Translations under genes and position numbers: made by a program
NCBI GenBank assembly: GCA_038323195.1
Contig: JBBQGQ010000005.1
Span: forward strand, 99,217 to 163,216
DNA length: 64,000 nucleotides
Direction of reading: 5' to 3'
DNA from: Acidimicrobiia bacterium
GTDB taxonomy: Bacteria; Actinomycetota; Acidimicrobiia; IMCC26256; PALSA-610
The notes under the pieces: model-generated
Databases searched by the model: none
Told to the model about the DNA's origin: nothing
Seen by the model: only the letters and a program-made list of their open reading frames with translations
In this document: in pieces, positions 8,394 to 54,133 of the stretch
How the letters are laid out: each line of letters opens with the position of its first letter
Position numbering within the stretch: the first letter of the stretch is position 1

Positions 8394-11381
8394 GTGCCCA
8401 CCCGCGTCTCGAGCTCCCGGTTCGTCGGACGCCGGGCCGAGCTGACTCGGCTCGAAGCGAGCTGGAAGGCAGCGGTCGTCGACGAGCGTGCGGCGACCGT
8501 GCTCCTGTCCGGCGAGGCGGGCGTCGGCAAGTCGCGGCTCGTGGCCGAGCTCGTCGCTCGTATTCCGGAGCCGTCGCTGGTGTTGTTCGGTCAATGCTTC
8601 GACCTCGTCGATCGCGCGATGCCATTCGGGCCGATCGTGCAGGTGATGCGCACGTTGCATCGCACGCTCGACGAGGCGACGCTCGAATCGGTCATCGGGC
8701 CGGGACGCGACGAGCTCGCGGTTCTGCTGCCCGCGCTCCACACGCCGGCGCGCGAGGGCATCGTCTCCGGCGCGCTGTTCGAGCAGCTGCTCGGCGCGTT
8801 CGAGCGGTTGGCCGAGCGCGTTCCCACCTTGCTGGTGCTCGAGGATCTGCACTGGGCCGATCGGTCGACACGCGAGCTGTTTGCGTATCTCGCTCGAAGT
8901 CTGCGCACGGCGTCGATGGTGCTGTTGGGAACGTATCGTTCCGACGATCTCCACCGGCGACATCCTTTGCGGGGTGTGCTGGCAGAGCTCGACCGCTCGG
9001 GCGCGGTCGAGCGGATCGAGCTTGCTCGCTTCGATCGTGACGAGGTGCGCGAGCTCATCTCGGCGATCGTCGGGAGCGAGCCGTCGACCGAGCTGGTCGA
9101 GCGGACGTATCGCCGCTCCGACGGCAACGCCTTCTTCGCCGAGGAGCTTCTCGCCGTCGACGCCACATACCACGCCACGTACCACGCGTCCATGCCATCG
9201 ACGTTGCGGGAGATCGTGCTCGCGCGCGTCGACGGGCTCTCCGAACCGGCGCAAAACGTGCTCCGTTGCGCGGCGGTCATCGGGCGTTCCGCCGATCACC
9301 GGCTCCTGGAGGCCGCGGCCGGCATTCCTCGCGAGGATCTGCTCGCCGGTCTGCGCGACGCGGTCGAGCACCAGATTCTCGTCACCGACGTCGACGGCCT
9401 GGAATACCGGTTTCGACACGCGCTCGTGCGCGAGGCCGTCGAGGACGACCTGTTACCCGGCGATCGCGTTGCATTGCACTCGCGCGTCGCGGAGGTGCTC
9501 GCCGAGCAACCGGTCTGGTTCGACGGGGGCGCGGCGCAGCTCCTGGCCGAGCTGGCCTGCCACTGGGACAGCGCACGCGATGCGCCGCGCGCGCTCGTCG
9601 CCGCGCTCGACGCCGCGCGCGCCGCCGAGCAGATCTATGCGTACGGCGATGCCCTCGACCACGCCGAACAGGTCCTCGCGTTGTGGGCGCAGGTTCCCGA
9701 CGCCGAGGATCGCACCGGCATGCGCCACGTCGACATGATGCGCTACGCGGCGACGCAGGCGGAGATGTCCGGGAGCACCGACCGAGCCCTCGACTACACC
9801 CGCTCGGCCATCGCTGAGATCGATCCCGTCGACGATCCGATCGTTGCCGGCCTGTTGCACGAGCGCTTCGGCCGGTACCTCTGGATGCTCGCGCGATCCT
9901 GGTCGGACATTCTCGAACATTGCCGCGAAGCCGTACGTCTCGTGCCGGTCGAGCCCAGCGCGGCGCGGGCGAAGGTGCTCGCCACCCTCGGCCAACAGTT
10001 GATGCTCGCGGGCCGCGACGACGAGGCCATGTCCGTCTGTGAGCAGGCGATCGCGGTGGCACAGGCGGTCGGTGAGCCGGTCATCGAGGGTCATGCGCAC
10101 AACTCCCTCGGAACGATCCTCGCCGGCATCGGGCGGTTGGACGAGGGACTCGCCGAGCTGCACCGCGCGCGAGCGCTCGCGCTCGAGACCGAGTCGTGGG
10201 CCGACGTCGCCCGCGCCGCGGTCAACGAGGGCGGCGCGCTCCAGACAACGGCCCGTGACGAGGAGGCGTTGGCGATCTCACTCGAAGGCGCCGAGATCGC
10301 GCGTGCCCACGGGCTCGACCGCGCCTTCGGCGCGTTCCTGCGGTTGAACGCAGTCGAGGCTCTTCGTGCGCTCGGCCGGTGGGACGAGGCCGACGAGCAA
10401 CTGCAGGAAGTCGAGAGTGTCGATCCGCTCGGCATCGACGCCTGGCGCCTCGCCGAGCACCGATGCCTGTTGGCGGTGGGGCGCGCGCAGTTCGAGACCG
10501 CGCGCGCCGAGGCGGCGCGGATGGAGCAGTTGGTCGGCCATGCGGGCGCAGTGCGCGACCACCTCGCGATCGAGCACGCGCACATTGCGATCGCGGGATG
10601 GAGCGGCGACGAGGCCGGGGCGTTCGAGCAGGCGCTCGCGGCCCTGCGCGAGCCGGTCGAGGATCTCCGGTTGTGCTCCGACGTCAGCGTCGAGGTCATC
10701 GTCGAAGGGCTCGCGGCCGGGGCGTCGGTCGCGGCGCGCACGCGGGAGCCCGAAGCTCGCGCCGAGTACCTGGAGCGCGTGCGCGAGCTGGGCGGCCAGC
10801 TCGACGACGGGGTAGCCGCCGATCGGTGGGGCGGCGGTCACCCCGGAGCCCTGGACGCGCTCCGCTGCCACATTGCCGCGGAGACCGCGCGCGCCGCTCG
10901 GAGTGACGACGGGCCGAGCTGGCTCGCGGTCGCCGAGATGTGGTCGGGCTACGCCATGCTCCCGCGTGAAGCGTACGCGCGCTTCCGCGCGACCGAGGCG
11001 TTCGTGCGCGACGACGACCGCGACGCCGCGGCGTCGAGCGCTCGTGATGCGTACGCGCTTGCCGCCGACATCGGCTGGATCTGTGTACGCGACGCGGTCG
11101 CAAGCCTGGCGCGCCGGGCGCGCCTTGATCTGGGCGCGGTCGCCAGTGCGGTGGCCTCGCCCGCGGATCGGTACGGTCTCACGGCCCGCGAGCTCGACGT
11201 CGTCGCGCTCGTGGCCGAGGGTCGCACGAATCGCCAGATCGCCGACGCGCTCTTCATCTCGGCCAAGACGGCGAGTGTGCACGTGTCGAACATCTTGGCC
11301 AAGCTCGGGGTGACCAATCGGGGCGAGGCGGCCGCCGCCGCCCGGCGTCTGGGTCTCGACCTCGGTGCCGCGGGCGCGTAG
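8394..11381 (+). CDS. large ATP-binding LuxR-family (LAL/MalT-like) transcriptional regulator
   Basis: P-loop GEAGVGKS near the N-terminus, a long helical/TPR-like middle and a C-terminal LuxR HTH (LTARELDVVALVAEGRTNRQIADALFISAKTASVHVSNILAKLGV). Start is uncertain (GTG 8307 or GTG 8394). Confidence 0.85.
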   Translation: MPTRVSSSRFVGRRAELTRLEASWKAAVVDERAATVLLSGEAGVGKSRLVAELVARIPEPSLVLFGQCFDLVDRAMPFGPIVQVMRTLHRTLDEATLESVIGPGRDELAVLLPALHTPAREGIVSGALFEQLLGAFERLAERVPTLLVLEDLHWADRSTRELFAYLARSLRTASMVLLGTYRSDDLHRRHPLRGVLAELDRSGAVERIELARFDRDEVRELISAIVGSEPSTELVERTYRRSDGNAFFAEELLAVDATYHATYHASMPSTLREIVLARVDGLSEPAQNVLRCAAVIGRSADHRLLEAAAGIPREDLLAGLRDAVEHQILVTDVDGLEYRFRHALVREAVEDDLLPGDRVALHSRVAEVLAEQPVWFDGGAAQLLAELACHWDSARDAPRALVAALDAARAAEQIYAYGDALDHAEQVLALWAQVPDAEDRTGMRHVDMMRYAATQAEMSGSTDRALDYTRSAIAEIDPVDDPIVAGLLHERFGRYLWMLARSWSDILEHCREAVRLVPVEPSAARAKVLATLGQQLMLAGRDDEAMSVCEQAIAVAQAVGEPVIEGHAHNSLGTILAGIGRLDEGLAELHRARALALETESWADVARAAVNEGGALQTTARDEEALAISLEGAEIARAHGLDRAFGAFLRLNAVEALRALGRWDEADEQLQEVESVDPLGIDAWRLAEHRCLLAVGRAQFETARAEAARMEQLVGHAGAVRDHLAIEHAHIAIAGWSGDEAGAFEQALAALREPVEDLRLCSDVSVEVIVEGLAAGASVAARTREPEARAEYLERVRELGGQLDDGVAADRWGGGHPGALDALRCHIAAETARAARSDDGPSWLAVAEMWSGYAMLPREAYARFRATEAFVRDDDRDAAASSARDAYALAADIGWICVRDAVASLARRARLDLGAVASAVASPADRYGLTARELDVVALVAEGRTNRQIADALFISAKTASVHVSNILAKLGVTNRGEAAAAARRLGLDLGAAGA

Positions 11382-13649: not shown

Positions 13650-13713
13650 GGCCCGAAGCCCGGTGACGCGCGTGCGCTACGGTGCCGCCCGTCAGTGTGA
13701 ACGGGAGGAACCC

Positions 13714-13917
13714 ATGAGCTTCCGGGTCGTCGTCGACTTCGACAAGTGCGAGAGCAACGCGTTGTGCATGGCCGCCGCGCCCGAGGTGTTCGAGGTGCGC
13801 GAGGACGACTTCTTGTACGTGCTCCAAGAGGAGCCCGCCGACGACCTGCGCGCCAAGTGCGAGGAAGCGGTCCGCGTCTGCCCGAAGCAGGCGATCTCGA
13901 TCGTCGACGCTTCCTGA
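13714..13917 (+). CDS. small single-cluster ferredoxin
   Basis: ATG at 13714 preceded by GGGAGGAA. The 67-aa protein MSFRVVVDFDKCESNALCMAAAPEVF...RVCPKQAISIV has the Cys-x5-Cys...Cys-Pro pattern of actinobacterial 3Fe-4S/4Fe-4S ferredoxins. Confidence 0.85.
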   Translation: MSFRVVVDFDKCESNALCMAAAPEVFEVREDDFLYVLQEEPADDLRAKCEEAVRVCPKQAISIVDAS

Positions 13918-13926
13918 GCCGGGCCG

Positions 13927-14724
13927 ATGCCCGGCATGGAGGGTACGGCCGTGCTCGTCACGGGCGGAGGAAGCGGCATCGGGCTCGGATGCGCGCGGCG
14001 GTTCGCGGCCGACGGAGCGCACGTGACGATCGCGGGTCGCACCGAGGCGCGCCTCTCGGAAGGAGCGTTGGACATCGCGGCCATCGCCGCGCCCGGCGCC
14101 AGGGTCCAGTACGTCGTGAGCGACGTCACGAGGGAACCCGACGTGCAGCGCGCGGTGGCAGCTGCCGCGGAGCCGACCGGAAAGCTCGACGTGTTGTTCG
14201 CGTGCGCGGGAGGGTCGCTGCACGGTGGCCCGATCATCGCATCGGACGCCGACGCGTGGCGCGCCACCGTCGACCTGAACCTCGTCGGTACGTTCCTATG
14301 CATCAAGCACGCCGCTCCCGTGATGATCCGCGGCGGTGGCGGCTCGATCGTTGGTATGTCGTCGATCGCCGGACACACGACGCACCGCTTCATGAGCGCG
14401 TACTGCGCGAGCAAAGCCGGGATCGAGATGCTGGTGAAGTGCGCAGCGGACGAGCTGGGTGAGCACAACATCCGCGTCAATGCGGTGCAACCGGGCATCG
14501 TCGACACCGAGCTCATGAGCTTCATCACCGCCGGCGGGCCGATCCTCGACAGCTACCACGCGAACATGCCCGTGGCGCGCGTCGGGACGGTCGACGACAT
14601 CGCCGCCGCGGTGCGCTATCTCGGCGGTCCGGAGTCGACGTGGATAACCGGGCAGATGCTGGGGATCGACGGCGGCCATCAACTTCGCTGCGGCCCCGAC
14701 TACGGCTCAGTGCTGGGCGGTTGA
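13927..14724 (+). CDS. SDR family oxidoreductase
   Basis: TGGGSGIG Rossmann motif and a YCASK catalytic motif. 265 aa. Confidence 0.9.
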   Translation: MPGMEGTAVLVTGGGSGIGLGCARRFAADGAHVTIAGRTEARLSEGALDIAAIAAPGARVQYVVSDVTREPDVQRAVAAAAEPTGKLDVLFACAGGSLHGGPIIASDADAWRATVDLNLVGTFLCIKHAAPVMIRGGGGSIVGMSSIAGHTTHRFMSAYCASKAGIEMLVKCAADELGEHNIRVNAVQPGIVDTELMSFITAGGPILDSYHANMPVARVGTVDDIAAAVRYLGGPESTWITGQMLGIDGGHQLRCGPDYGSVLGG

Positions 14725-14727
14725 GCA

Positions 14728-15948
14728 GTGGACTTCGAGGAAACCGAAGACGAACGCGCGTTCCGAGTGGAGGTACGCGCGTGGCTCGACGCGCACGCGA
14801 AGCGGCGGGAGGCCGGAGAACGGTCCGATCACTCGTACATGCCGGGCGACGGCAATCCCGAGGCGGACGCCGCGCATGTGCGCGCGTGCAAGGAATGGCA
14901 GCGCATTCTCTACGACGGTGGCTGGGCCGGCATCACGTGGCCCGTGGCGGCCGGCGGGCGCGGTGGTCCGGGCTGGCAGCAACGGATCTTCAACGAGGAA
15001 CAGTCGCACTACAACGCCGCGGTCGGCGTGTTCGCGGTCGGCATCGCCATGGCCGGACCCACGATCATCGCGTGGGGCACTCCCGAGCAGCAGGAGCGGT
15101 TCCTGCCCTCGATGTTGCGGGGCGACGACGTGTGGTGCCAGCTGTTCTCCGAGCCGGGCGCGGGCTCCGACCTCGCGGGCCTGCGGACGCGTGCCGAGCG
15201 CGACGGCGACGAGTGGACGATCAACGGGCAGAAGGTCTGGACGTCGGGCGCGCACTACAGCGACTGGGGCCTCTTGCTCGCGCGCAGCGATCTCGACGCG
15301 CCGAAGCACAAGGGCATCACCGCGTTCCTGCTCGACATGCGTACGGCGGGGATCGACGTGCGCCCCTTGCGCCAGATCAACGGCGCGTCGCACTTCAACG
15401 AGGTGTTCCTCACCGACGTCCGGATCCCCGACGCGATGCGCCTGGGTCCGCCCGGAGGTGGTTGGCGGGCGGCGAACACGATGCTGTCGAACGAGCGGGC
15501 GATGATCGGCGGCGGCGGCCGGGTCGGCTTTCGCGATCTGCTCGCGCTCGCCAAGCGGTGTGGCGCGACCGGGGATGCGGTGCTGCGCCAGGAGCTCGTC
15601 CGGAGCTATACCCGGACCCAGATCATCAAGTGGCTCGGCTTGCGGGCGCGCAGCCGCAAGGATCAGGGCCTCGGTCCCGAGGCCTCGGTGCTGAAGCTGG
15701 CGGCGTCGCGCCGGCTCGAGCACGACGCCAACCTGGTGATGGAGCTCCAGGGCCCGCAATCGATGCTCTACGACGACGACGCGATCCAGCACGGGTACTG
15801 GCAGCAGCAGTTCCTCGGGCAGTGGAGCAGCCGCATCGGCGGTGGCACCGAGCAGATCCAGCGCAACGTGATCGGCGAACGGGTGCTCGGCTTGCCGAGC
15901 GAGCCGCGGCCCGGCAAGGACACGCCCTTCCGCGAGCTTCCTTCCTAA
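14728..15948 (+). CDS. acyl-CoA dehydrogenase family protein
   Basis: GTG start 3 nt after the SDR stop. 406 aa with typical ACAD N-terminal, middle and C-terminal layout (WCQLFSEPGAGSDLAGL...INGQKVWTSGA...). The C-terminal motif reads IGGGTEQIQ rather than YEGT. Confidence 0.9.
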   Translation: MDFEETEDERAFRVEVRAWLDAHAKRREAGERSDHSYMPGDGNPEADAAHVRACKEWQRILYDGGWAGITWPVAAGGRGGPGWQQRIFNEEQSHYNAAVGVFAVGIAMAGPTIIAWGTPEQQERFLPSMLRGDDVWCQLFSEPGAGSDLAGLRTRAERDGDEWTINGQKVWTSGAHYSDWGLLLARSDLDAPKHKGITAFLLDMRTAGIDVRPLRQINGASHFNEVFLTDVRIPDAMRLGPPGGGWRAANTMLSNERAMIGGGGRVGFRDLLALAKRCGATGDAVLRQELVRSYTRTQIIKWLGLRARSRKDQGLGPEASVLKLAASRRLEHDANLVMELQGPQSMLYDDDAIQHGYWQQQFLGQWSSRIGGGTEQIQRNVIGERVLGLPSEPRPGKDTPFRELPS

Positions 15949-16439: not shown

Positions 16440-17843
16440 TTGCGGATCATCGTTGTGGGCGGCGGGATCGCGGGTCTGGGCACCGCGCTCGCATGCGCGC
16501 GCGACGGACACCAGGTGACCGTCCTCGAGCGCGACGACACTCCGATGCCGACCGATGCCGACGCGGCGTTCGCGTGGCAGCGCACTGGCGCACCACAGGT
16601 GCGCCACTCGCACGCGTTCCTCGCCCGCCTGCGCAACCTGTTGCGCGACCGCGCGCCCGACGTACTCGACGCGCTGCTCCGTGCCGGCGCGACGGAGATC
16701 CCGTTCACTGAGCACCTACCTCCGACGCTCACCGATCAGTCGGCGCGCCCGGGCGACGCCGACCTCGTCGCCATCGCGTGCCGGCGCACGACGTTCGAGT
16801 GGGTCCTGCGCCGGCTGGTGCTCGACGAGCCGGGCGTCGAGCTCGGCCACGGCGCGGCCGCGAGGTCGCTCGATGCGCGCCCGGGAACGATCCCACGCGT
16901 CGTCGGTGTCGACGGCGCCCGGGCCGAACTTGTGGTCGACGCCCGCGGCCCGCGTTCGTCGTCCGCCGAATGGCTCGCCGCGATGGGTGCCCCACCCGTC
17001 CGCGAGGAACTGCACGAGAGCGGCATCGTCTACTACTCGCGGTTCTACCGCGTTCGGACCGGCATCGAGGCACCGCCCTACTCGGGTCCGACCGCCGCCG
17101 ATCTCGGCTACCTCAAGTACGCGATCTTCCTGGGTGACAACCGCACCTTCTCGATCACCTACGCGATCGAGAGCGACGACGAGCAGCTCCGCCGGGCTCT
17201 CGCCGCCTCCGATGGCTTCGAGACCGTCGCGGGGTCGCTCGTCGCGACCGCGCCCTGGCGCGTCGACGGTGTCGCCGATCCGATCACCGACGTGCACATG
17301 ATGGCCGGGCTCCGCAACCGCTACCGTCCCCTCGTCGACGACGAAGGCCGGCCGATCGTGTACGGCTACGTCGCAGTCGGCGACGCGGCGGTGTGCACGA
17401 ACCCGCTCTACGGACGCGGTTGCAGCCTCGCGTTCGTGCACGCGTTCGGCTTGGCCGACGCGTTGCGCGAGCACGGCGGCGATCTCGACGCGCTGTCGCG
17501 TACCTTCGCCGCCTTCACCGATCGCGAGGTAGTGCCGTGGTTCCGCTCGGCGGTGCTGCAGGACGCGCAGGCACGCGCGCTGCACGAGGAGCTGCCGTCC
17601 GAAGACCCGCGCGCGTTCGCGCAGGAGATCTTTCGTGAGGGACTCTTGCCCGCGATGCGCACCTCGCCCGTCGTGTTCCGGGCGTTCCTGCGGTGGTTCA
17701 ACCTCTTGGTCACGCCCGATGCGCTCATGGCCGACGCCGAGATCGTCGGCGAGGTGCTCGCCGCCTACCAGGATCGCGAGAACCGTCCCGGGCCACCGGT
17801 GCTCGGTCTCGACCGCGAGGCGTTGCTGCGCGAGCTCGCCTGA
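16440..17843 (+). CDS. FAD-dependent oxidoreductase (monooxygenase / geranylgeranyl-reductase-like)
   Basis: TTG start preceded by GGGAGGAA. N-terminal dinucleotide-binding motif IIVVGGGIAGLGTALA. 467 aa. Confidence 0.8.
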   Translation: MRIIVVGGGIAGLGTALACARDGHQVTVLERDDTPMPTDADAAFAWQRTGAPQVRHSHAFLARLRNLLRDRAPDVLDALLRAGATEIPFTEHLPPTLTDQSARPGDADLVAIACRRTTFEWVLRRLVLDEPGVELGHGAAARSLDARPGTIPRVVGVDGARAELVVDARGPRSSSAEWLAAMGAPPVREELHESGIVYYSRFYRVRTGIEAPPYSGPTAADLGYLKYAIFLGDNRTFSITYAIESDDEQLRRALAASDGFETVAGSLVATAPWRVDGVADPITDVHMMAGLRNRYRPLVDDEGRPIVYGYVAVGDAAVCTNPLYGRGCSLAFVHAFGLADALREHGGDLDALSRTFAAFTDREVVPWFRSAVLQDAQARALHEELPSEDPRAFAQEIFREGLLPAMRTSPVVFRAFLRWFNLLVTPDALMADAEIVGEVLAAYQDRENRPGPPVLGLDREALLRELA

Positions 17844-17858: not shown

Positions 17859-19952
17859 TCAGTAGGCGAGGAGCGCCCGGAGGTCGCGCGCGATGTCATC
17901 GACCTGGGGGAGCGTCGCGTTCTCGAGGGTCGGCTCGTACGCGCAGAAGGTGTCGGTCGCGGCGAGGCGCCACACCGGCGCGTCGAGGTGCTCGAAGCAC
18001 TCGTCGGCGACGAACGCGGCAATCTCCGCGCCGAATCCGCACGTGAGCGTGTCCTCGTGCAGCACGAGCACACGGCCGGTCTTACGCACGGATTCGCCCA
18101 CGATGTCGCGGTCCCACGGCGCGATCGTGCGCAGGTCGACGATCTCGACGCCGCCGTCGTCGCCCAGCTCCTTGACCGCGAGCTGCGCGCGGTGCACGGT
18201 CGCGCCCCACGTGACGACGGTTGCCCGATCGCCGCGCGTCACGTAGGTGCCCTTGCCGAACGGCAGCATCCAATCCGCGGGAGGCAGCGGATCGCGGTTG
18301 TAACCCTGCCGGTACAGGTGCTTGTGCTCGAGGAAGAGGACGGGATCGTCGCAACGAAACGCGGTGCGCAACAAGCCGGCTGCGTCCCGCGCTCGGGACG
18401 GAAACGCGATCAGGAGTCCCGGAACGTGGGCGAAGACCGATTCGCCCGACTGGCTGTGGAACAGCGCGCCGCCCTGCAGGTAACCGCCGATCGGGATGCG
18501 CACGACCATGGGGCAGCTGAACGCGCCGTTCGAACGCCAACGCGTCGTTGCCGCCTCCGATCGGAGCTGGTTCATCGCCGGCCAGACGTAGTCGAAGAAC
18601 TGGATCTCCGCGCACGGCCGGAGTCCGCGCATTGCCTGCCCGACGGCGCGGCCGATGATGTTCGCCTCCGCCAGCGGCGTGTTGAAGCACCGGGCGTCTC
18701 CGAACGCGCGCTGGAGGCCGAAGGTGATCCCGAACACCCCGCCTTTGCCGGGTACTTCGTCGATGACGTGCGAGTCGGCGTCGGCCACGTCCTCACCGAA
18801 CACCCGGATCCGTTCGTCGAGCGCCATCTGCTCGTGCAATGTGAGGCGGATCGCCTCGCCGAACGTGACGACCTCGGGGGGCGGGTCGGGCTGCGCCGGC
18901 TCGCCGGGGTCGGCGGTCACCGGCGTGGGCCCGAACACGTGGTCGATGACCGACACGGGAGCCGGCCTCGGCAACGCGAGCGCGGCTTCGGCTGCCGACC
19001 GCACGGTCTCCTTGGCTTCGGCGCGCATCTGCTCGGCGGCCTCGACCGTGAGCGCGCCGGCCGCGAGCAGTCGTTGCTCGAGCGCGGTGATCGGGTCGTG
19101 TTCGCGCTCGTCGTCGAGCTCTTCGGCCGCGCGGTACTTCTTCTGGTCGTCGGAGAGCGAGTGTGAGTACGGGCGCGTGACGACCGCGTGCACGAGGCAC
19201 GGGCCCGCGCCGGCCCGCACGTGTGCGATCGCATTCGCGCCCTTGCTGCGAACCTCGAAGTAGTCGCGTCCGTCGATGTTCACGACGTGGAGCCCGCGAA
19301 TGCCACGCACCATCTCCGAAATCGGCGCGGGATGCTGATCGGTCGATCGCACCGAGATCGCGTAGCCGTTGTCGGCAACGACGAACAGCACCGGGAGATG
19401 GAGACGAGTTGCGGTGTTGAGCGCTTCCCAGAACTCGCCTTCGGAGGTCGCGCCCTCGCCGAGCGACACGTACGTAACCTCGTCGCCGTGTGCGGTGCAG
19501 CCGGGCAGATGCGGGCGCCGGCCGATGTAGCGCGCCGCCTCCGCGCAGCCGACCGCGGGCAGGCACTGACTCGCGGTGACCGACGTCTGGCTCACGATGT
19601 TGAGCCGGGCCGAGCCCCAGTGGCACGGCATCTGCCGGCCACCCGATGCCGGGTCGGCCGCCGCGCCGACGGCCTGCATCAACATCTCGAGCGGCGTGAC
19701 GCCGAGGGCCAACGCGAGCGCCCGATCGCGGTAGTAGGGGAAGAACCAGTCGTAGCCGGCGCGCAGGGAGCGCGCGAGGCCGAGCAGCAGCGCCTCGTGC
19801 CCGGCGCCCGAGATCTGGAAGAAGGCGCGGTTCTGCTGGCGGAGCGCGATCTCGCGGTCGTCGCAAAAGCGCGACACGAGCGCGAGGCGGAAATCGTCGA
19901 GCGCGTCGTCGAGGTATGCGTCGAGCGGTCGGTCGAGTGCGGCGTCGTGCAC
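17859..19952 (-). CDS. 2-oxoacid dehydrogenase E1 component, fused alpha and beta subunits
   Basis: One frame encodes the TPP-binding alpha part (SLGEGATSEGEFWEALN...VADNGYAIS) and the transketolase-like beta part (FGEDVADA...FNTPLAEANIIG...). Start is uncertain: GTG at 19952 chosen, ORF is open to 20123. Confidence 0.85.
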   Translation of the reverse strand: MHDAALDRPLDAYLDDALDDFRLALVSRFCDDREIALRQQNRAFFQISGAGHEALLLGLARSLRAGYDWFFPYYRDRALALALGVTPLEMLMQAVGAAADPASGGRQMPCHWGSARLNIVSQTSVTASQCLPAVGCAEAARYIGRRPHLPGCTAHGDEVTYVSLGEGATSEGEFWEALNTATRLHLPVLFVVADNGYAISVRSTDQHPAPISEMVRGIRGLHVVNIDGRDYFEVRSKGANAIAHVRAGAGPCLVHAVVTRPYSHSLSDDQKKYRAAEELDDEREHDPITALEQRLLAAGALTVEAAEQMRAEAKETVRSAAEAALALPRPAPVSVIDHVFGPTPVTADPGEPAQPDPPPEVVTFGEAIRLTLHEQMALDERIRVFGEDVADADSHVIDEVPGKGGVFGITFGLQRAFGDARCFNTPLAEANIIGRAVGQAMRGLRPCAEIQFFDYVWPAMNQLRSEAATTRWRSNGAFSCPMVVRIPIGGYLQGGALFHSQSGESVFAHVPGLLIAFPSRARDAAGLLRTAFRCDDPVLFLEHKHLYRQGYNRDPLPPADWMLPFGKGTYVTRGDRATVVTWGATVHRAQLAVKELGDDGGVEIVDLRTIAPWDRDIVGESVRKTGRVLVLHEDTLTCGFGAEIAAFVADECFEHLDAPVWRLAATDTFCAYEPTLENATLPQVDDIARDLRALLAY

Positions 19953-20008
19953 TGTCCGGCAGTGTACGACGTAGCCTGGGTCGCGGTGACACAGCCGGCG
20001 AGTGAGAC

Positions 20009-20908
20009 GTGAGCGAGTCCGCGACCCTTCCTTGGCGCCGGCGCGCCGCGCGCGACACGCGCGGCTTCGTGTCGCCCGCGGTGCGGAATCTCGGGCGCGA
20101 GCTCGGCGTCGATCCGGCTTCACTACTGGGCCGAGGGACGGGAGCCCGTGTCACACTCGCCGACGTGCGGGTTGCCGGAATGGGAGCCGATCGTGCTTCT
20201 GCCGCTGGCACTTCTGCCGCGGGCGAGACCGGGTGCGACGAGGTCGTGCCGTTCGACAACGTCCGGCGCCGGACTGCTGTCGGGCTGCTTGCGTCGAAGC
20301 GCACGATCCCGCACGCGCTGGAGGTCGTCGCGGCCGACTACGGGGCGATCGACGGAGCGCGCGCCGTCGCGGGGCTCACCGCGTTGCCGTTCGTGGCGCG
20401 GGCAGTGGTCGACGCGCTCCGCGAATTCCCGCTGATGAACGCGACGGTGGCCGAGGACGGGTTGTCGCTCGTGACGCACCGCGCCGTGCACCTCGGGATC
20501 GCGGTCGACCTCGACTTCCACGGGCTCGTGGTACCGGTCGTGCACGGTGCCGACGGCCTGCGCTTGCGCGCCCTCGCCGCGGCCATCCGCGAGGTCGCCG
20601 GGCGCGCTCGCGCCCGGAAGCTGGTCCCCGACGACCTTGCGGGCGGAACGTTCACGATCACCAACCCGGGTGCGTCGGGCACGTGGATCTCGTTCCCGGT
20701 GATCAATCGACCTCAGGTCGGGATCCTCGCAACCGACGGCGTCTCCAAGCAGGTGGTCGCCGGCGACGACAGCCGGCTCGGCATCGCGTCGGTCGGTCGT
20801 CTCTGCTGCGCGTTCGACCATCGTGCGCTCGACGGCGCGTACGCGGGCGCGTTCCTCCGGCGCGTCCGGCACATCATCGAGCACCGCGACTGGCTCAGGG
20901 AGCTTTGA
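20009..20908 (+). CDS. 2-oxoacid dehydrogenase E2 acyltransferase lacking a lipoyl domain
   Basis: 299 aa. It begins directly with a peripheral-subunit-binding motif (VSPAVRNLGRELGVDPASLLGRGTGARVTLADV), followed by the catalytic domain with DHRALDG. There is no room upstream for a lipoyl domain. Confidence 0.8.
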   Translation: MSESATLPWRRRAARDTRGFVSPAVRNLGRELGVDPASLLGRGTGARVTLADVRVAGMGADRASAAGTSAAGETGCDEVVPFDNVRRRTAVGLLASKRTIPHALEVVAADYGAIDGARAVAGLTALPFVARAVVDALREFPLMNATVAEDGLSLVTHRAVHLGIAVDLDFHGLVVPVVHGADGLRLRALAAAIREVAGRARARKLVPDDLAGGTFTITNPGASGTWISFPVINRPQVGILATDGVSKQVVAGDDSRLGIASVGRLCCAFDHRALDGAYAGAFLRRVRHIIEHRDWLREL

Positions 20909-22043
20909 CGGCCAGCTTCGCCGGATCCTCGACGTCGGTCGGCGTGCAGCCCGGTGGGGCCGTGACCGGATCGCAGCGCGCCGGCGTACCACCCGGAATC
21001 TTGGTCACGTAGCCGTTGCCGAGCTTCGGGTCGGGCTGCTCGTAGTCGGTGCTCACGAGCTGTGCGCCGCCGCTCAACGCGACCTGTTCGTCGTGGTGGT
21101 TGTTCGCGCGGGCTTCGACGGTGTCGGCGTCGGCGCGCGTGCGCACGATCATGTGCGCCGCCAGCGCGGCCTTGATCTTCGCCGCGTCGCCGACGGGATC
21201 GTTCAGCTTCGCGAACGCGGCATCGTCTTGTCCGGGTGCCGACGGAGTGAAGATCAACCGGCCGCGGAGCGACGGATGGCCGACGAGGTAGGCGGCGCGG
21301 AAGCTTCCTTCGTTGTCGAGCGTGAAGTAGACCTTGCCGCGCACGGTGCCGAGCGTCGGCCAGCCGTGCGCGCGAACGGCCGCTCCCAATGTCGGCGCGT
21401 TGGCGCGCACGTCGTCGGGAGTGATGATCTGCGTGCGATCGAACACCGAGGTGATCTCGTGCTCGAGCTCCTGGAACATCGGCTCGGTCGCCTTGTCGTC
21501 TTTCATCTCGATGTGGACGTCCATCGGCACATGACCCGGGTGCGCATCGGACCACGTGCGAACGAGGCGGAGGCACAGCACGAAGGTGAGGCATGTCGAG
21601 TTCGTGTCGACGTCGGCCTGGTGGATGATCTTGAAGCCCGGCTCGTTCATCACGGGGTTGTTCGGGATGTGGACACCCTCTTGGAGCGGAAAGGACGGTT
21701 TCGCGTATTTGCCGCCGCGCGGGTCGTACCAGACGTCGAGCTCGATCTGGCGAACGCCGATGTCGAACTGCTTCGGGAGCGGCGCGTGCGCGTAGTCGAG
21801 TGTTCGGGCCAGTGCGGGAGTCGATTTGTAGAGCGCGTCGAGAACCTGCGGATAGGGCCGGCCGTGGTAGCTGTTGTGCGACCCGAGTACTTGTACCTGG
21901 TCGAGCCGGAGCGTGTCGTCGAGCCGGTACGCGGGGGCGGTCGTCGTCGATGCGGGTGCCGTGCCGTTGTGGCCACCGCTACTGCTGCAAGCCGTTGCCG
22001 CGAGCGCGACGAGACACATTGATGCCAACATGCGGGGCCGCAT
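20895..22043 (-). CDS. secreted lipoprotein, PLC-like phosphodiesterase (PI-PLC X-domain type)
   Basis: ATG at 22043 gives MRPRMLASMCLVALAATAC (signal peptide plus lipobox). VLGSHNSYH and the rest resemble Ca-dependent PI-PLC-like proteins. The 3' end overlaps the convergent E2 gene by 14 nt. Confidence 0.75.
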   Translation of the reverse strand: MRPRMLASMCLVALAATACSSSGGHNGTAPASTTTAPAYRLDDTLRLDQVQVLGSHNSYHGRPYPQVLDALYKSTPALARTLDYAHAPLPKQFDIGVRQIELDVWYDPRGGKYAKPSFPLQEGVHIPNNPVMNEPGFKIIHQADVDTNSTCLTFVLCLRLVRTWSDAHPGHVPMDVHIEMKDDKATEPMFQELEHEITSVFDRTQIITPDDVRANAPTLGAAVRAHGWPTLGTVRGKVYFTLDNEGSFRAAYLVGHPSLRGRLIFTPSAPGQDDAAFAKLNDPVGDAAKIKAALAAHMIVRTRADADTVEARANNHHDEQVALSGGAQLVSTDYEQPDPKLGNGYVTKIPGGTPARCDPVTAPPGCTPTDVEDPAKLAVKAP

Positions 22044-22080
22044 GACCCGGAGCATAGGATCTCCGTCGTCCATCCGGCCT

Positions 22081-22106
22081 GCCCGAGCGGTAGGCCCGAG
22101 CGGTAG
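22081..22106. repeat. perfect 13-bp tandem duplication GCCCGAGCGGTAG x2
   Basis: Copies at 22081-22093 and 22094-22106, in the divergent region between the PLC-like gene and the ferredoxin gene. Confidence 0.95.
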
Positions 22107-22179
22107 ATATGTCTCGATGCGTCTCGAGCGAGTCGAAACACTGCCCACTGCGAGTGAGAACCCGAGGAGAAGCGTCGTC

Positions 22180-22371
22180 GTGAAGGTGCGTGTCGACCCC
22201 GATCTGTGCGTCGGCCATGGCCGCTGCTACGTGCTGGCTCCCGACGTGTTCGCCCCTGACGACTTCGGCCACTGCGAGATCGTCGCCTCCGAGGTCGGCG
22301 GAGCCCTTGCCGAACAGGCGCGCATCGGCGCCGAGAACTGCCCGGAACGAGCCATCTCCTTGGAGGATTGA
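22180..22371 (+). CDS. small single-cluster ferredoxin
   Basis: GTG at 22180 preceded by GAGGAGAA. VKVRVDPDLCVGHGRCYVLAPDVF...ENCPERAISL has the Cys-x5-Cys...Cys-Pro pattern. Confidence 0.8.
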   Translation: MKVRVDPDLCVGHGRCYVLAPDVFAPDDFGHCEIVASEVGGALAEQARIGAENCPERAISLED

Positions 22372-22374
22372 CGG

Positions 22375-23205
22375 ATGAACGACGTGCTGCAGTACGAGGG
22401 CAAGCGCGTGATCGTGACGGGCGCAGCTTCGGGGATGGGCGCCGCGACTGCGCAGATCCTCGTCGATCTCGGCGCCGAGGTGCACGCGATCGACATCAAG
22501 AAGCCCGAGGTGACGGGGCTGGCCAGCTTCAGTCAGTGCGATCTGCGCGATCCCGCACAGATCGACGAAACGATCGGGAAGATCGGCAAGATCGTGAACG
22601 CGCTCTTCAATTGCGCGGGTCTGCCGAACACGTTCCCGAACCTCGACGTGATGCTCGTCAACTTCTGCGGACTCCGCCAGGTGACCGAGTCGGTGATCCC
22701 GCTCATGATCGAGGGTTCGTCGATCGCGAGCATCGCGTCGACCGCGGGGATCGGTTGGATGCAGAACATGGAGCTTTTGTTCGGGCTCATGATGACTCCC
22801 GACTTCGCCGGGGCACGCGCGTGGTGCGAAGCGCACCCGAAGGAGCTCGCGAACGCGTACGGCCTGTCGAAGGAAGCGATCAACGCGTACACCGCGTTTC
22901 GTTCGTTCAACCTCGCCCAGGACGGGCTCCGCATCAACTGCGTCAACCCCGGCCCCACCGACACGCCGATGATGCCCGAGTTCGAGAAGGCCGTCGGCAA
23001 GAAGTACATGGACGACTTCCCGGTTCCCCTCGGCCGCCATGCCGTCGCGGAGGAGCAGGCTTGGCCCATGGTGTTCCTCAACAGCCCGCGCTCGTCGTTC
23101 GTCACGGGCTTGCAGTTCGACTGCGACGGCGGGTTCAAGGGCGGACTTTTCACCGGCCAGATCGACCCGACCGTGCTGATGCCCGAAGGTATGGGCGACG
23201 CATGA
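22375..23205 (+). CDS. SDR family oxidoreductase
   Basis: VIVTGAASGMGAATA Rossmann motif. 276 aa. Starts 3 nt after the ferredoxin stop, and its own stop overlaps the bioB start (ATGA). Confidence 0.85.
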   Translation: MNDVLQYEGKRVIVTGAASGMGAATAQILVDLGAEVHAIDIKKPEVTGLASFSQCDLRDPAQIDETIGKIGKIVNALFNCAGLPNTFPNLDVMLVNFCGLRQVTESVIPLMIEGSSIASIASTAGIGWMQNMELLFGLMMTPDFAGARAWCEAHPKELANAYGLSKEAINAYTAFRSFNLAQDGLRINCVNPGPTDTPMMPEFEKAVGKKYMDDFPVPLGRHAVAEEQAWPMVFLNSPRSSFVTGLQFDCDGGFKGGLFTGQIDPTVLMPEGMGDA

Positions 23206-24185
23206 CCGACGCGCGGCGAAGCGACTGGACGATCGACGAGGTGCAGGCGCTGTTCGAGCTACCCCTCATGGCGTTGGTACGCCGGGCCGGCCGGGTGTAC
23301 GAACAGTTCCACGACACCGACGTCGTGCACGTGAACCAACTGTTGTCGATCAAGACCGGGGCGTGTCCCGAGGACTGCGGGTATTGCTCGCAGTCGGCGC
23401 ATCACGACACCGGCGTCAAACCACAGCCGTTGATGGCCGTCGACGAGGTGGTGCGCACCGCGACGCGAGCCAAAGCCCAGGGCGTCACCCGGTTCTGCAT
23501 GGGTGCCGCATGGCGCGACGTGAAGGACAATGCGCAGTTCGACCGAGTGCTCGACATGGTTCGCCAGGTGAACGACCTCGGGCTCGAGGTGTGCGCGACG
23601 CTCGGCATGCTCACCGCCGACCAGGCGCGTCGGCTCGACGAAGCCGGGCTCTACGCCTACAACCACAACCTCGACACTTCACCCGAGTACTACGAGTCGG
23701 TGATCACCACCCGGACCTACCAGGACCGTCTCGACACGATCGACAACCTGCGGACGACGAACATCACCGTGTGCTGTGGCGGAATCATCGGGATGGGCGA
23801 ATCGGTCGCGGATCGCATCTCGTTCCTGCACCGGCTGGCGACCCTCGATCCCCACCCGGAGTCGGTACCGATCAACGTGCTGTCACGCGTTCCGGGTACG
23901 CCGCTGGAGGGGGCGGACGACGTCGAGATCCACGAGACGGTCCGCATGATCGCGACCGCACGGGTGCTCATGCCCACCTCGGTGGTCCGCATTGCCGCGG
24001 GGCGGCACCTCATGACCTTCTCCGACCAGGCGCTGTGCTTCCTCGCCGGGGCCAACTCGATCTTCACGAGCGAGCGCAACATGATGCTCACCGCGACGAC
24101 GCCGTGCGCCGACCACGCGACCGACCGCTCGATGCTCGCGACGATGGGATTGCGAGCCCGGGTGCTCGAGCCGACCGATCGTTGA
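23202..24185 (+). CDS. bioB: biotin synthase
   Basis: ATG at 23202. Radical-SAM CPEDCGYCSQS motif, then YNHNLDTS and CCGGIIGMGE, characteristic of BioB. Confidence 0.95.
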   Translation: MTDARRSDWTIDEVQALFELPLMALVRRAGRVYEQFHDTDVVHVNQLLSIKTGACPEDCGYCSQSAHHDTGVKPQPLMAVDEVVRTATRAKAQGVTRFCMGAAWRDVKDNAQFDRVLDMVRQVNDLGLEVCATLGMLTADQARRLDEAGLYAYNHNLDTSPEYYESVITTRTYQDRLDTIDNLRTTNITVCCGGIIGMGESVADRISFLHRLATLDPHPESVPINVLSRVPGTPLEGADDVEIHETVRMIATARVLMPTSVVRIAAGRHLMTFSDQALCFLAGANSIFTSERNMMLTATTPCADHATDRSMLATMGLRARVLEPTDR

Positions 24186-25012: not shown

Positions 25013-26917
25013 TTACTGAGGTAGCGCGCGGAGGAACCCGGCGGCCAGGGGCGCGGCGACGCGGCCGCCCACACCGCCATCCTCGACGATCACCGCGAAT
25101 GCGACGTCGCCGCGGAAGCCGATGAACCACGCGTGGGTCCGGGGCGGGTTTGCGTTGCCGAACTCGGCCGTGCCCGTCTTGCCGAACGTGCCGGGAGGCA
25201 TACCCGCGCCGGCTGCCGTTCCGCCGGGTCGAACGACGCTCGCCATGAACGACTTCAGTGTCGAGTCGATACCCGGGTCGAGCGGGGCGACGACCGGGCC
25301 GGCGGCCGGTGCCGGCGCGGTGACGAGCGTCGGTGCGCGCCACCGCCCGTTGGCGACCGCCGCCGCGACCGACGCCATCTGAACGGGACTGGCGAGCACG
25401 CGTGCCTGCCCGATCGCCGACGCGGCGCGTTCGGCGCGGTCGCTGGGCGTCGGGTACGAACCGCCGGCCGCGTCGATGCCGAGTGACCAGTGCGCATTGA
25501 ACCCGAACGACGTCGCCGCCTTGCCGAGCGCGTCTGCGGGCAGTGCATCGGCCAGGCCGATGAACGCGTTGTTGCACGAGATCGCGAACGCGCCCGCGAG
25601 ATCGAGCGCGCCCGACGCCTCGCCCTCGAAGTTCGCGAACGACCGGCCGTCGACCGTGATCTTCGGCGGGCAGGGCGCGGGCGTCGAGCCGGTGTCGCCG
25701 GCGGCGAGCAGTCCCGCGGACGTGATGACCTTGAAGGTCGATCCCGGCGGGTACGTGCCCGCGAGCGCACGATCGAATCCGCCGTCGGGCTTCGAGACGA
25801 CGGCCCGGATCGCGCCCGTCGACGGGTCGATTGCAACCAGGGCCGCGTTGTTGGCGGTGACCCCGGCGAGGGCTGCTTCCGCGGCCTTCTGAGTTGCGGG
25901 ATCGATCGTCAGCCGCACCGATTGCCCCGCCTTGCCCGCGAAGCGCTCGAGCGTGCGTACGGTCGCGCCCTTGCCGTCGACGATCACGACGTCCGTGCTC
26001 GGCGTCCCGGCGAGCCGCCTCTCGTACACCGATTCCAGGCCGGAGAGCCCGACTCGATCGCCGACCGCGTAGGGCGAGCCGAGCTGGTGGAGCCGATCGG
26101 CCGTGATGTCGCCGACACTGCCGAGGATCTCCGCGCCGAGCGCCGTGTCGACCGTGACGACGCCCTGGGCGGCCCGGAAGATGATCCCGTTGATCGGAAC
26201 CAGTTGATCGTGGATGCGTTTGTAGCGGTCGGCCGGGAGCCGCGAGACCGTGACCACGGGCAGGAAGTAGAACGGGCGTACTCCGGGCGCGTGGAGCACG
26301 TTGTCGATGGTCGCCGGGTCGACCCCGAGCAACGACTTCATACCGAACTTCACGGCTGCGAGATCGGCCGGGGTCTTGATGTGATCGGGTTCGAGGCCGA
26401 CCTGCACGATTGCCTGGTCGCCGGCGAGCACGCTGCCGTCGGCGCCGAGGATCGGGGCGCGCGCGGGCCAGACTCGGTCGACCGTCAGGTGCTGGCCGGC
26501 GCCCAGACCCGGATAGAGATCGCTCGGATTCCACTTGATGCGCCAGCCCGCCTTCGAGTGGACGAGCGCGAGCGAACCGTCCCACTGGATCGCGCCCAAG
26601 CCCTTGAGCGCGACCTTGGCGTGGTACGTCGCGCTCGCCTCGGTTGCAGTGCCGGTGAGGCCAGTTCGCGTGTAGATCGCCGAACTGCCGGGAACCGCCC
26701 GCACCAGCCCGGACACCGCGGCGGCGAGATCGGTCGGCGGCGCGTCGAGGAGGGTGGCCATGTCGGCCGGGTCGCCGCGTGCCCAGGCGTGCAGGAAGGT
26801 GTCGACCTCCCGGCTCGGGAGCGTGAGCTTGTCCTTGTGGGTCTTCGCGACGACGACGCCCACGATGGTGCCGGCGACGACGAGGAGCGCCGCGAAGAAG
26901 ACGAGAGCGCGCTTCAT
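25013..26917 (-). CDS. class B penicillin-binding protein (transpeptidase) with NTF2-like N-terminal domain
   Basis: N-terminal TM helix and the motifs STFKV (SxxK), SCN (SxN) and KTGTAE (KTG). Confidence 0.9.
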   Translation of the reverse strand: MKRALVFFAALLVVAGTIVGVVVAKTHKDKLTLPSREVDTFLHAWARGDPADMATLLDAPPTDLAAAVSGLVRAVPGSSAIYTRTGLTGTATEASATYHAKVALKGLGAIQWDGSLALVHSKAGWRIKWNPSDLYPGLGAGQHLTVDRVWPARAPILGADGSVLAGDQAIVQVGLEPDHIKTPADLAAVKFGMKSLLGVDPATIDNVLHAPGVRPFYFLPVVTVSRLPADRYKRIHDQLVPINGIIFRAAQGVVTVDTALGAEILGSVGDITADRLHQLGSPYAVGDRVGLSGLESVYERRLAGTPSTDVVIVDGKGATVRTLERFAGKAGQSVRLTIDPATQKAAEAALAGVTANNAALVAIDPSTGAIRAVVSKPDGGFDRALAGTYPPGSTFKVITSAGLLAAGDTGSTPAPCPPKITVDGRSFANFEGEASGALDLAGAFAISCNNAFIGLADALPADALGKAATSFGFNAHWSLGIDAAGGSYPTPSDRAERAASAIGQARVLASPVQMASVAAAVANGRWRAPTLVTAPAPAAGPVVAPLDPGIDSTLKSFMASVVRPGGTAAGAGMPPGTFGKTGTAEFGNANPPRTHAWFIGFRGDVAFAVIVEDGGVGGRVAAPLAAGFLRALPQ

Positions 26918-27034
26918 CGGCCGCCAGTCTGGCCCAGGGGAGCCCGGAGCCGGGGGCGCGACCCGTCGGCCCGACCCGTCGAGATGCCGGGAGTGGGGCC
27001 GTCGTTCGACACGTCACGGCTCCGGGGACGAAGA

Positions 27035-27048
27035 TGGAACACGTTCTA
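27035..27048. promoter_or_regulatory. candidate TetR/KstR-type palindromic operator TGGAACACGTTCTA
   Basis: Matches the published KstR pattern TnnAACnnGTTnnA. It lies 60 nt upstream of the first gene of an acyl-CoA dehydrogenase pair. No kstR/TetR gene is present in the window. Confidence 0.35.
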
Positions 27049-27107
27049 TCCTGCGACCCCGCGACCCCTATCCCCCCGACCCTGTGTCGAGTAGTGCCGG
27101 AGGCCAG

Positions 27108-28286
27108 ATGTACGTCGGCTTGAGCAAGGAGCAAGAGGCGCTGCGCGACGAGCTACGCGCGTACTACGACGGACTGCTCACGCCGGAGGTCGAAGACGAT
27201 CTGCGCAAGGGCGAGGGAGTCGGTCAGGTCTCGAAGGACGTCTGGAAGCAGATGTGCCGCGACGGCTGGGCCGGCGTCGGATGGCCCAAGGAGTGGGGCG
27301 GCCGCGGCATGACGCCGATCGAGCAGTTCGTGTTCTTCGACGAGTCGATGCGCGCCGGCGCGCCGGTCCCGATGCTCACGATCAACTCGGTCGCGCCGAC
27401 GATCATGCGGTATGGCTCGGAGGAACAGAAGCGGTTCTTCGTCGACAAGATCCTGAAGGGCGAGATCCACTTCGCGATCGGCTACACGGAGTCCGACGCG
27501 GGTACCGACCTCGCGTCCTTGAAGACCCGCGCGGTGCGCGACGGCGACGAATACGTCATCAACGGCCAGAAGGTCTTCACGAGCTTGGCGAGCGGCGCCG
27601 ATTACGTCTGGCTCGCGGTCCGCACCAGCCAAGAGGCGAAGAAGCACAAGGGCATCTCGATCATCATCGTGCCCACCGACACGCCCGGGTTCTCGTACAA
27701 GAAGATCGACAACTTCGGCGACACCAACACGAACATCACCTATTACGAAGACGTTCGGGTCCCCGTCGGGAATCTGGTGGGCGAGGAGAACCAGGGTTGG
27801 TCGCTCATCACCAACCAGCTGAACCACGAGCGCGTGACGTTGTGCTCGTCGGGCGTCGTCGAGCGTCAACTCGACGACGTGCGTGACTGGGCGCAACACA
27901 CGAAGCTCGCCGACGGTCGCCGTGTGATCGACCAGGAATGGGTACAGGTCAATCTCGCCCGCGTGCACGCCAAGCTCGAGTTCCTGAAGCTCGCGAACTG
28001 GCGGGTGGCGTGGCTCGCGCAGAACGGTGAGGCGCTGAACCCGGCCGACGCGTCGTCGATCAAGGTGTACGGCACGGAGTTCTACATGGAAGCCGCACGC
28101 CTGCTGATGGAGATCATGCGCGATCAGGCGCCGCTGTCGGGCACGTCGCCCGGGGCAGTCGTGCGCGGACGGGTCGAGCGCATGCTGCGCGGGATGCACA
28201 TCTTGACCTTCGGCGGCGGCACCAACGAGATGCAACGAGACCTGATCGCGATCTTCGGGCTGAACATGCCCGGAAGCCCGCGCTGA
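27108..28286 (+). CDS. acyl-CoA dehydrogenase family protein (first of an adjacent pair)
   Basis: ATG at 27108 (MYVGLSKEQEALRDELRAYY...). ACAD fold. The C-terminal motif is FGGGTNEMQ, so there is no canonical YEGT glutamate. Confidence 0.9.
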   Translation: MYVGLSKEQEALRDELRAYYDGLLTPEVEDDLRKGEGVGQVSKDVWKQMCRDGWAGVGWPKEWGGRGMTPIEQFVFFDESMRAGAPVPMLTINSVAPTIMRYGSEEQKRFFVDKILKGEIHFAIGYTESDAGTDLASLKTRAVRDGDEYVINGQKVFTSLASGADYVWLAVRTSQEAKKHKGISIIIVPTDTPGFSYKKIDNFGDTNTNITYYEDVRVPVGNLVGEENQGWSLITNQLNHERVTLCSSGVVERQLDDVRDWAQHTKLADGRRVIDQEWVQVNLARVHAKLEFLKLANWRVAWLAQNGEALNPADASSIKVYGTEFYMEAARLLMEIMRDQAPLSGTSPGAVVRGRVERMLRGMHILTFGGGTNEMQRDLIAIFGLNMPGSPR

Positions 28287-28302
28287 CCCCAGGAGACGCA
28301 CC

Positions 28303-54106: not shown

Positions 54107-54133
54107 CGCCGGATCATCGCGGCGAAAGGCCGG

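Follow-up and report, generated by a model that had tools for sequence, protein, structure and literature searches.

In the textbook 2-oxoacid dehydrogenase complexes the acyltransferase component (E2) carries its own swinging lipoyl arm. The Corynebacterium and Mycobacterium work has shown that OdhA/Kgd together with trimeric E2p break this own-arm rule, and has left unexplained how one lipoyl pool serves several active sites. Described here is a divergent gene pair from a 64,000-nucleotide stretch of DNA of an uncultured soil Acidimicrobiia bacterium (contig JBBQGQ010000005.1, positions 99,217 to 163,216; hereafter the window, GC content about 69%). One gene, E1ab, encodes a fused E1 alpha-beta component, and the other, E2s, an E2 paralogue without a lipoyl domain. 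With a rough probability of 55% the pair is read as a probably branched-chain-type 2-oxoacid dehydrogenase module whose lipoyl domains are supplied in trans, as they are for OdhA/Kgd.

The dependence of OdhA on the lipoyl groups of E2p is experimentally established, and E3 is shared (PMC10415282). An insertion of three residues that includes Phe keeps actinobacterial E2p in the trimeric state, and both OdhA and the signature of trimeric E2p have been reported in Acidimicrobiia (Bruch et al., bioRxiv 10.1101/2020.07.24.212647). Complexes whose lipoyl domain has moved to a different subunit are known from Mycoplasma hyopneumoniae, Neisseria, Alcaligenes and Zymomonas; in the pyruvate dehydrogenase (PDH) of M. 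hyopneumoniae this domain sits on PdhD (PMC7873978). In the open-access literature, a search for free-standing E2 proteins without a lipoyl domain returned only OdhA, M. hyopneumoniae and engineered truncations.

Anatomy and conservation of the E1ab/E2s pair

The pair and the parts of its products are as follows.

17859..19952, (-) strand: E1ab, fused E1 alpha-beta 2-oxoacid decarboxylase/dehydrogenase component, 697 aa, GTG start at 19952; alpha part at residues ~1-345, Pro-rich linker at ~346-361, beta part at ~362-697
19953..20008, divergent: intergenic region, 56 nt between the E1ab and E2s start codons
20009..20908, (+) strand: E2s, lipoyl-less dihydrolipoamide acyltransferase paralogue, 299 aa
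20027..20044, (+) strand: LPWRRR motif, E2s residues 7-12, about 10 residues before the next feature
20066..20170, (+) strand: peripheral-subunit-binding domain (PSBD), E2s residues 20-54 (PF02817 E3_binding, 1.3e-7, above the gathering score)
20237..20905, (+) strand: acyltransferase catalytic domain, E2s residues 77-299
20816-20836, (+) strand: DHRALDG, E2s residues 270-276, with His271 and Asp275

Both genes have a coding-type GC content at third codon positions (GC3) of 0.86-0.88. As an earlier note on this DNA had read from the translation, E2s begins directly at the PSBD and continues into a catalytic domain with DHRALDG. The PF00198 2-oxoacid_dh match spans residues 77-292 (4.7e-56), and the catalytic Thr216 lies within FTITN. 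An AF2 monomer model (pLDDT 75.7) and a Foldseek search, whose top matches are E2 catalytic domains, confirm an ordinary E2 catalytic fold with a small helical PSBD (two helices, pLDDT ~80-89); trimer and 24-mer are not discriminated by them. In a 63-sequence alignment Thr216, His271 and Asp275 are invariant, as are S22, P23, G41, G43, R47, T49 and D52 of the PSBD, R293, W295 and E298 of the C-terminal RDWxxEL, and W9, R10 and R12 of the N-terminal LPWRRR. This W-R-x-R motif is not present in the canonical E2s inspected. The third positions of its codons vary synonymously across loci, which argues for selection on the motif at the protein level.

The features expected of an E2 are thus split in E2s: a PF00198 domain with DHRxxDG and a PSBD are present, and an N-terminal lipoyl domain is absent. 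No Biotin_lipoyl (PF00364) match was found by Pfam in E2s, and no lipoyl domain in E1ab. An in-frame TGA (20003-20005) stands two codons upstream of the E2s GTG; from this start the invariant Trp9 is reached after just 8 residues. A hidden Markov model (HMM) of the lipoyl domain was built from canonical Acidimicrobiia, E. coli and Bacillus domains; positive controls scored ~1e-37 and a betaproteobacterial E2 5.6e-14. With this model a six-frame scan of the entire window gave no hit (best E = 0.34). By tblastn no E3 or LipB/LipA was found in the window, nor was GcvH. The earlier claims that no lipoyl domain can be encoded upstream of E2s, and that no E3 or lipoyl carrier lies beside it, are therefore borne out. 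A truncation, frameshift or alternative start of E2s is ruled out by the upstream stop, the conserved length and the conserved N-terminus, and a lipoyl domain in another frame or antisense to E1 by the six-frame scan. Both of the ways in which the earlier note thought it could be wrong, a lipoyl domain in an alternative start or frame and a frameshift or assembly error shortening a longer E2, are excluded by a short architecture that recurs in >100 homologues and ~25 syntenic loci.

E1ab is carried by an open reading frame at 17859..20123 (-) that reaches a maximum of 754 aa with a far-upstream GTG at 20123. GTG 19952 is the sole start codon between that position and the E1 alpha homology region and gives 697 aa, in agreement with the chain of about 700 residues noted earlier. 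All three Pfam matches fall on this one chain (E1_dh 1.8e-50, Transket_pyr 5.7e-32, Transketolase_C 1.3e-31); together with the thiamine diphosphate (ThDP)/Mg motif and the catalytic His residues they give E1ab the properties of a K11381-type fused E1. The Mg/ThDP motif GEG...DNGY is visible in the translation. In the alpha part YSHSLSDD aligns with GHHSTSDD around the catalytic His of the alpha chain of human branched-chain 2-oxoacid dehydrogenase (BCKDH), the next Ser being conserved too. In the beta part the His of FHSQS aligns to His position 146 of chain 1dtw_B (human BCKDH beta), which we take to be catalytic, and the ThDP-activating Glu is kept (PLAEAN). Following the BCKDH and PDH E1 literature, the alpha and beta His are presumably the residues of lipoamide reductive acylation.

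For both alpha and beta parts BCKDH-type E1s rank above PDH E1s in the PDB. The best matches are Thermus thermophilus 1um9 (alpha 1.4e-45, beta 1e-66), the Pseudomonas putida beta chain (8e-70) and Pyrobaculum 1ik6 (1.4e-76). The best 120 homologues have the same three domains throughout and measure 651-834 aa, mostly 684-728. They are named 2-oxoisovalerate dehydrogenase E1 (KEGG K11381) or, at NCBI, 'dehydrogenase E1 component subunit alpha/beta'. Against the NCBIfam E1 models every E1ab score was below cutoff.

The best 120 homologues of E2s are 65-97% identical to it, and almost all are 258-317 aa long. They have PF02817 plus PF00198 (PF00198 alone in two), PF00364 in 0/120, DHR in 118/120 and G(T/S)FTxTN in 120/120. 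The divergent pair recurs in ~25 loci from Acidimicrobiia metagenome-assembled genomes (MAGs), and in none of them did the HMM detect a lipoyl domain in the 6-10 kb around the module. The order SDR, acyl-CoA dehydrogenase (ACAD), FAD oxidoreductase, E1ab(-), E2s(+), PI-PLC-like gene(-), SDR is kept in ~20 loci, across which identity is 86-92% for E1ab and 67-81% for E2s. Two more distant genomes (E1ab ~81%) retain the divergent pair and the PI-PLC-like gene next to other neighbours, and in locus L037 a Liv-type ABC transporter takes the place of the FAD oxidoreductase with the E1ab/E2s pair retained. The nearest related locus is from an Acidimicrobiia soil MAG (89% amino-acid identity); all close relatives are Acidimicrobiia or Actinomycetota MAGs.

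When the sequence library was clustered at 50% identity, the E2s family shrank to a handful of representatives. In a neighbour-joining tree of catalytic domains all lipoyl-less proteins with W-R-x-R form one clade beside the lipoyl-bearing E2s. Elsewhere in the tree a few short sequences stand dispersed between long ones; these may represent fragments, or losses that arose independently. Three distant members of the lipoyl-less clade, P0124, P0129 and P0133, have the degraded motifs FDSRVVDG, FDHRVLPPQ and FDHRVVDVAY; judging from such motifs, some distant lineages may have turned an E2s-type protein into a non-catalytic scaffold. Locus L033, which is betaproteobacterial, has an open frame of 3.3 kb that was considered as an E1-lipoyl fusion; it proved to be an ordinary operon running from E1 alpha to a lipoyl-bearing E2, read through in a GC-rich long-read assembly.

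Kinship with E2p and comparison with described systems

The best PDB matches of E2s are M. tuberculosis DlaT (6e-41) and C. glutamicum AceF; the E2 domain of Kgd matches far more weakly (5e-17). The best NCBIfam model is TIGR02927 SucB_Actino, below its cutoff, and against PRK11857 E2s scores 125.6 bits (cutoff 378). Outside its own family the closest relatives of E2s, 44-50% identical from the PSBD to the C-terminus, are the canonical Acidimicrobiia E2s, which consist of one lipoyl domain, a PSBD and the catalytic domain. Relative to them a deletion has removed 7 residues of E2s close to the beginning of the catalytic domain, and E2s ends in ...(T/H)RDWxxEL where the canonical proteins end in ...ETRDWxAELA. 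In an ungapped extension of the DlaT alignment W295 falls at Phe547 of M. tuberculosis E2p, part of the trimer-locking insertion; a comparison of C-terminal lengths with PCI-bearing E2p proteins does not cleanly separate the classes. On this sequence evidence E2s is a DlaT-type E2 paralogue that has lost ~157 N-terminal residues (lipoyl domain plus linker) and gained a short N-terminal peptide.

Canonical Acidimicrobiia E2 genes lie in lpd-E2-lipB/lipA clusters without a nearby alpha/beta E1. On contig_32065 (3,995,207 bp) such an E2 (P0472; lipoyl domain, PSBD and catalytic domain) is found at 11-24 kb, flanked by lpd (Pyr_redox_2 plus Pyr_redox_dim, without a lipoyl domain) and a lipB/lipA fusion; an E1ab/E2s locus (L013) lies on the same contig at 974-987 kb. 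A second case is provided by the E2s homologue QOE62_743 and the canonical E2 QOE62_2889, which are placed in one genome because they have a common NCBI locus-tag prefix. The gene that immediately follows the canonical E2 in Acidimicrobiia seems to encode octanoyltransferase (LipB) and lipoyl synthase (LipA) as one fusion, in an open reading frame of ~540-560 aa (7398-9011 in L038; 6947-8629 in L018).

Like E2s, OdhA/Kgd has an E2-type acyltransferase domain without its own lipoyl domain, and it occurs in the same phylum. Its lipoyl-lysine comes from E2p in trans, as we infer for E2s from the canonical E2 and E3 in the same genomes. In OdhA/Kgd, however, the E2 domain lacks a PSBD and shares its chain with an E1o of the homodimeric type, whereas E2s is a separate polypeptide with a PSBD. 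The two-in-one arrangement of OdhA/Kgd is not found here: the genes for E1ab and E2s are distinct and lie on opposite strands, and E1ab is of the alpha/beta type, not E1o.

In M. hyopneumoniae the E2 (PdhC, a PRK11857-type short E2) reportedly consists of a PSBD and a catalytic domain only, a description that is said to go back to Matic et al. in 2003. There the lipoyl domain is on the E3, PdhD, of the same operon. No such arrangement was found for E2s, since the window holds no E3 and the E3 of L038 has Pyr_redox domains only.

Canonical actinobacterial E2p (DlaT/AceF) has the fold, the catalytic residues and the C-terminal aromatic RDW..EL of E2s; unlike E2s it has an N-terminal lipoyl domain plus linker (~157 residues), no W-R-x-R and no adjoining E1 gene. 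Fused E1s of the K11381 type have the same single-chain architecture as E1ab, so that the fusion itself is ordinary; what is unusual by comparison is the constant head-to-head pairing of E1ab with a lipoyl-less E2. Mammalian E3BP (protein X) resembles E2s, in the role proposed for it, as an E2 paralogue that is a specialised partner within the complex of another E2. The losses are reversed, E3BP keeping the lipoyl domain and having lost the catalytic His, E2s having lost the lipoyl domain and kept the catalytic residues.

Proposed supply of the lipoyl arm

In the proposed mechanism E1ab would act as a dimer whose two fused alpha-beta chains correspond to alpha2beta2, and would decarboxylate its 2-oxoacid substrate, for which a branched-chain compound or a similar aliphatic one is most likely. 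E1ab would then reductively acylate the lipoyl-lysine on a lipoyl domain of another protein. This donor would most probably be the canonical actinobacterial E2p/DlaT-type E2, encoded elsewhere with lpd and lipB/lipA; because E2s has no lipoyl domain of its own, borrowing of the arm from an ordinary PDH-type E2 appears most likely. At the active site formed by Thr216/His271/Asp275 of E2s the visiting acyl-dihydrolipoyl domain would hand its acyl group to CoA, and a shared E3 would reoxidise the arm. The PSBD would hold E1ab and/or E3, and the invariant basic W-R-x-R peptide may be an extra docking element. A PSBD only makes sense in a multi-enzyme complex, so that its retention points to a physical complex of E2s with E1ab and/or E3 and disfavours a free-floating decarboxylase plus acyltransferase. 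The suggestion of branched-chain or similar aliphatic substrates leans on the BCKDH-type E1 matches, the 2-oxoisovalerate dehydrogenase names, the nearby ACADs and the Liv-type ABC transporter (L036/L037).

The earlier note had suggested a lipoyl domain supplied in trans by analogy with OdhA/Kgd. That suggestion gains circumstantial support from the catalytic residues, the PSBD, the kinship with E2p, the canonical E2 in two genomes and the presence of OdhA in Acidimicrobiia; the mechanism as such is one that we infer. Its other suggestion, a stand-alone decarboxylase plus acyltransferase, is disfavoured, the conserved lipoamide-handling residues and the PSBD weighing against it.

Several points count against a module with a borrowed arm. 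E2s evolves faster across the loci than E1ab (67-81% against 86-92% identity) and a few distant members of its family have a degraded DHR motif, which together would be compatible with relaxed or shifted constraint on E2s. In none of the loci is the lipoyl donor encoded near the module. A canonical E2 was seen together with the module in two genomes only, and such an E2 is expected in nearly any aerobic actinobacterium anyway. The neighbourhood (SDRs, ferredoxins, FAD oxidoreductase, PI-PLC-like lipoprotein, BioB) defines no pathway, and the substrate assignment leans on a weak similarity ranking and automatic names.

A tentative elaboration of the borrowed-arm reading, which we hold to be clearly less probable than the reading itself, would make E1ab/E2s a third client dehydrogenase of the actinobacterial PDH/2-oxoglutarate dehydrogenase (ODH) supercomplex. 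E2s would be a free-standing, PSBD-bearing, lipoyl-less E2 trimer that has a fused E1 of its own and uses the E2p lipoyl pool. W-R-x-R would be a new docking motif, binding either the lipoyl domain of E2p, which is acidic, or the particle of E2p and E3. The 50%-cluster representative P0121 (277 aa) keeps LPWRRR and has a short linker instead of the PSBD; because W-R-R-R is kept where the PSBD is lost, this protein hints that the motif may work independently of the PSBD.

Alternatively, E2s and the canonical lipoylated E2 might form heterotrimers in a mixed core, like mammalian E2 with E3BP. The arm would then act in cis within the core, and E2s would bring to it another PSBD, one specific to E1ab, and a further acyl specificity. 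The two proteins occur in the same genome, their catalytic domains are 44-50% identical, and the RDW..EL terminus that governs trimer packing in actinobacterial E2p is common to both. The genes, however, lie ~1 Mb apart without obvious co-regulation, E2s has the 7-residue deletion, and 44% identity is maybe too low for a compatible interface. Both the heterotrimer and the functions that it would add are considered unlikely.

It is quite unlikely, too, that the arm comes from another donor, be it a stand-alone lipoyl-domain protein, GcvH, or a lipoyl-bearing E3 or E1 encoded elsewhere in the genome. Nature offers precedents such as M. hyopneumoniae PdhD and the Zymomonas E1 beta (PMC7873978), and nothing in the data links E2s specifically to E2p. 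Yet the 6-10 kb around the module are free of lipoyl domains in ~25 loci, E1ab has none, the E3 beside the canonical E2 in a module-bearing genome has Pyr_redox domains only, and GcvH was not found in the window.

Equally improbable is a chemistry independent of lipoyl groups, with E1ab a ThDP decarboxylase or carboligase, or passing electrons to, for example, the neighbouring ferredoxins, and with E2s either a mere scaffold or a CoA acyltransferase that works on a free dithiol or thiol. The two small Fer4_15 ferredoxin genes and several oxidoreductases that flank the pair would fit such a role, as would the faster evolution of E2s and the loss of the catalytic His in some distant relatives. 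The main clade nevertheless keeps the E2 catalytic triad, both lipoamide-acylating His of E1 and the PSBD; the ferredoxins pair with SDR genes and not with E1ab, and in L037 the flanking genes differ while the E1ab/E2s pair stays. Practically nothing is left of the view that E2s is a pseudogene or a remnant truncated by frameshift, assembly error or a mis-called start, for which only its unusual length speaks and which is refuted by conservation: the same length and domain content in >100 homologues from independent assemblies, coding GC3, invariant catalytic and N-terminal motifs, conserved synteny, and no lipoyl-like sequence in any upstream frame.

Intergenic region, neighbouring genes and implications

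The start codons of the pair are separated by slightly less than the ~57 nt estimated earlier, the measured distance being 56 nt. A 15-locus alignment of 19953..20008 reveals a conserved block, cagtgtacgRccTAgcctgg, with back-to-back -10-like hexamers, both called from conservation alone.

19966-19961, (-) strand: TACACT, -10-like hexamer, 8 nt before the E1ab GTG
19972-19977, (+) strand: TAGCCT, -10-like hexamer facing E2s

A scan of the intergenic region for sigma-70 consensus promoters and terminators gave no match. The hexamers might represent a divergent promoter of compact build from which E1ab would be transcribed without a leader. In L002-L004 the start of E2s apparently lies 8 nt past the hexamer; in the present window 13 nt are inserted and the start comes later.

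Convergent with E2s, and overlapping its 3' end by 14 nt, is a gene for a PI-PLC-C1-type phosphodiesterase (20895-22148, (-) strand) with a lipoprotein-like signal (…LAATACSS). It stands beside E2s in most module loci whose sequence extends over this flank and is absent in L009 and L014; a functional link is not evident. On the E1ab side, the 467-aa FAD oxidoreductase (16440-17843) was considered as a surrogate E3 and rejected, as it has DAO/NAD_binding_8-type and weak N-terminal FAD-fold matches only and no CxxxxC motif, and as a transporter is found in its place in L037.

A small Fer4_15 ferredoxin gene followed by an SDR gene occurs twice, flanking the pair at ~13700-14724 and 22180-23205, and the same arrangement is found in L034 (3550-4562 and 12115-13140). 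The second SDR passes the cutoff of the NCBIfam 'coniferyl-alcohol dehydrogenase' subfamily and is followed by BioB (23199-24185). ACAD genes are located in the window at 14728-15948, 26676-28286, 28264-29424 and 54107-55291. Two neighbouring ones are similar, though below cutoff, to the large and small subunits of PimC/PimD and suggest a heteromeric ACAD as in actinobacterial lipid or steroid catabolism. Annotation of these neighbours (SDRs, PimC/PimD-like ACADs, BioB, PI-PLC-C1) defined no pathway. The gene at 8175-11381 (+) encodes a protein of 1068 aa in which one stretch matches the TOMM system kinase/cyclase fusion protein below cutoff (5.5e-52) and a LuxR-type helix-turn-helix lies at the C-terminus; it is unrelated to E1ab/E2s.

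Fused E1 and lipoyl-less E2 domains (OdhA/Kgd, M. hyopneumoniae PdhC) are already known. In the open-access literature no description was found of a free-standing E2 of PSBD and catalytic domain with an invariant W-R-x-R N-terminus, always head-to-head with a fused alpha-beta E1, in a lineage that has a canonical E2p as well. Public databases name such proteins as generic pyruvate or 2-oxoglutarate dehydrogenase E2, which is a systematic annotation problem, as they cannot work by themselves. The pair is a plausible extension of the actinobacterial lipoyl-sharing story, not a new principle. If the proposal is true, E2s would be a second, independently evolved arm-less acyltransferase, the sharing of lipoyl groups would extend beyond the tricarboxylic acid cycle, and the pair would offer a simpler two-protein system for studying the recruitment of lipoyl domains in trans.

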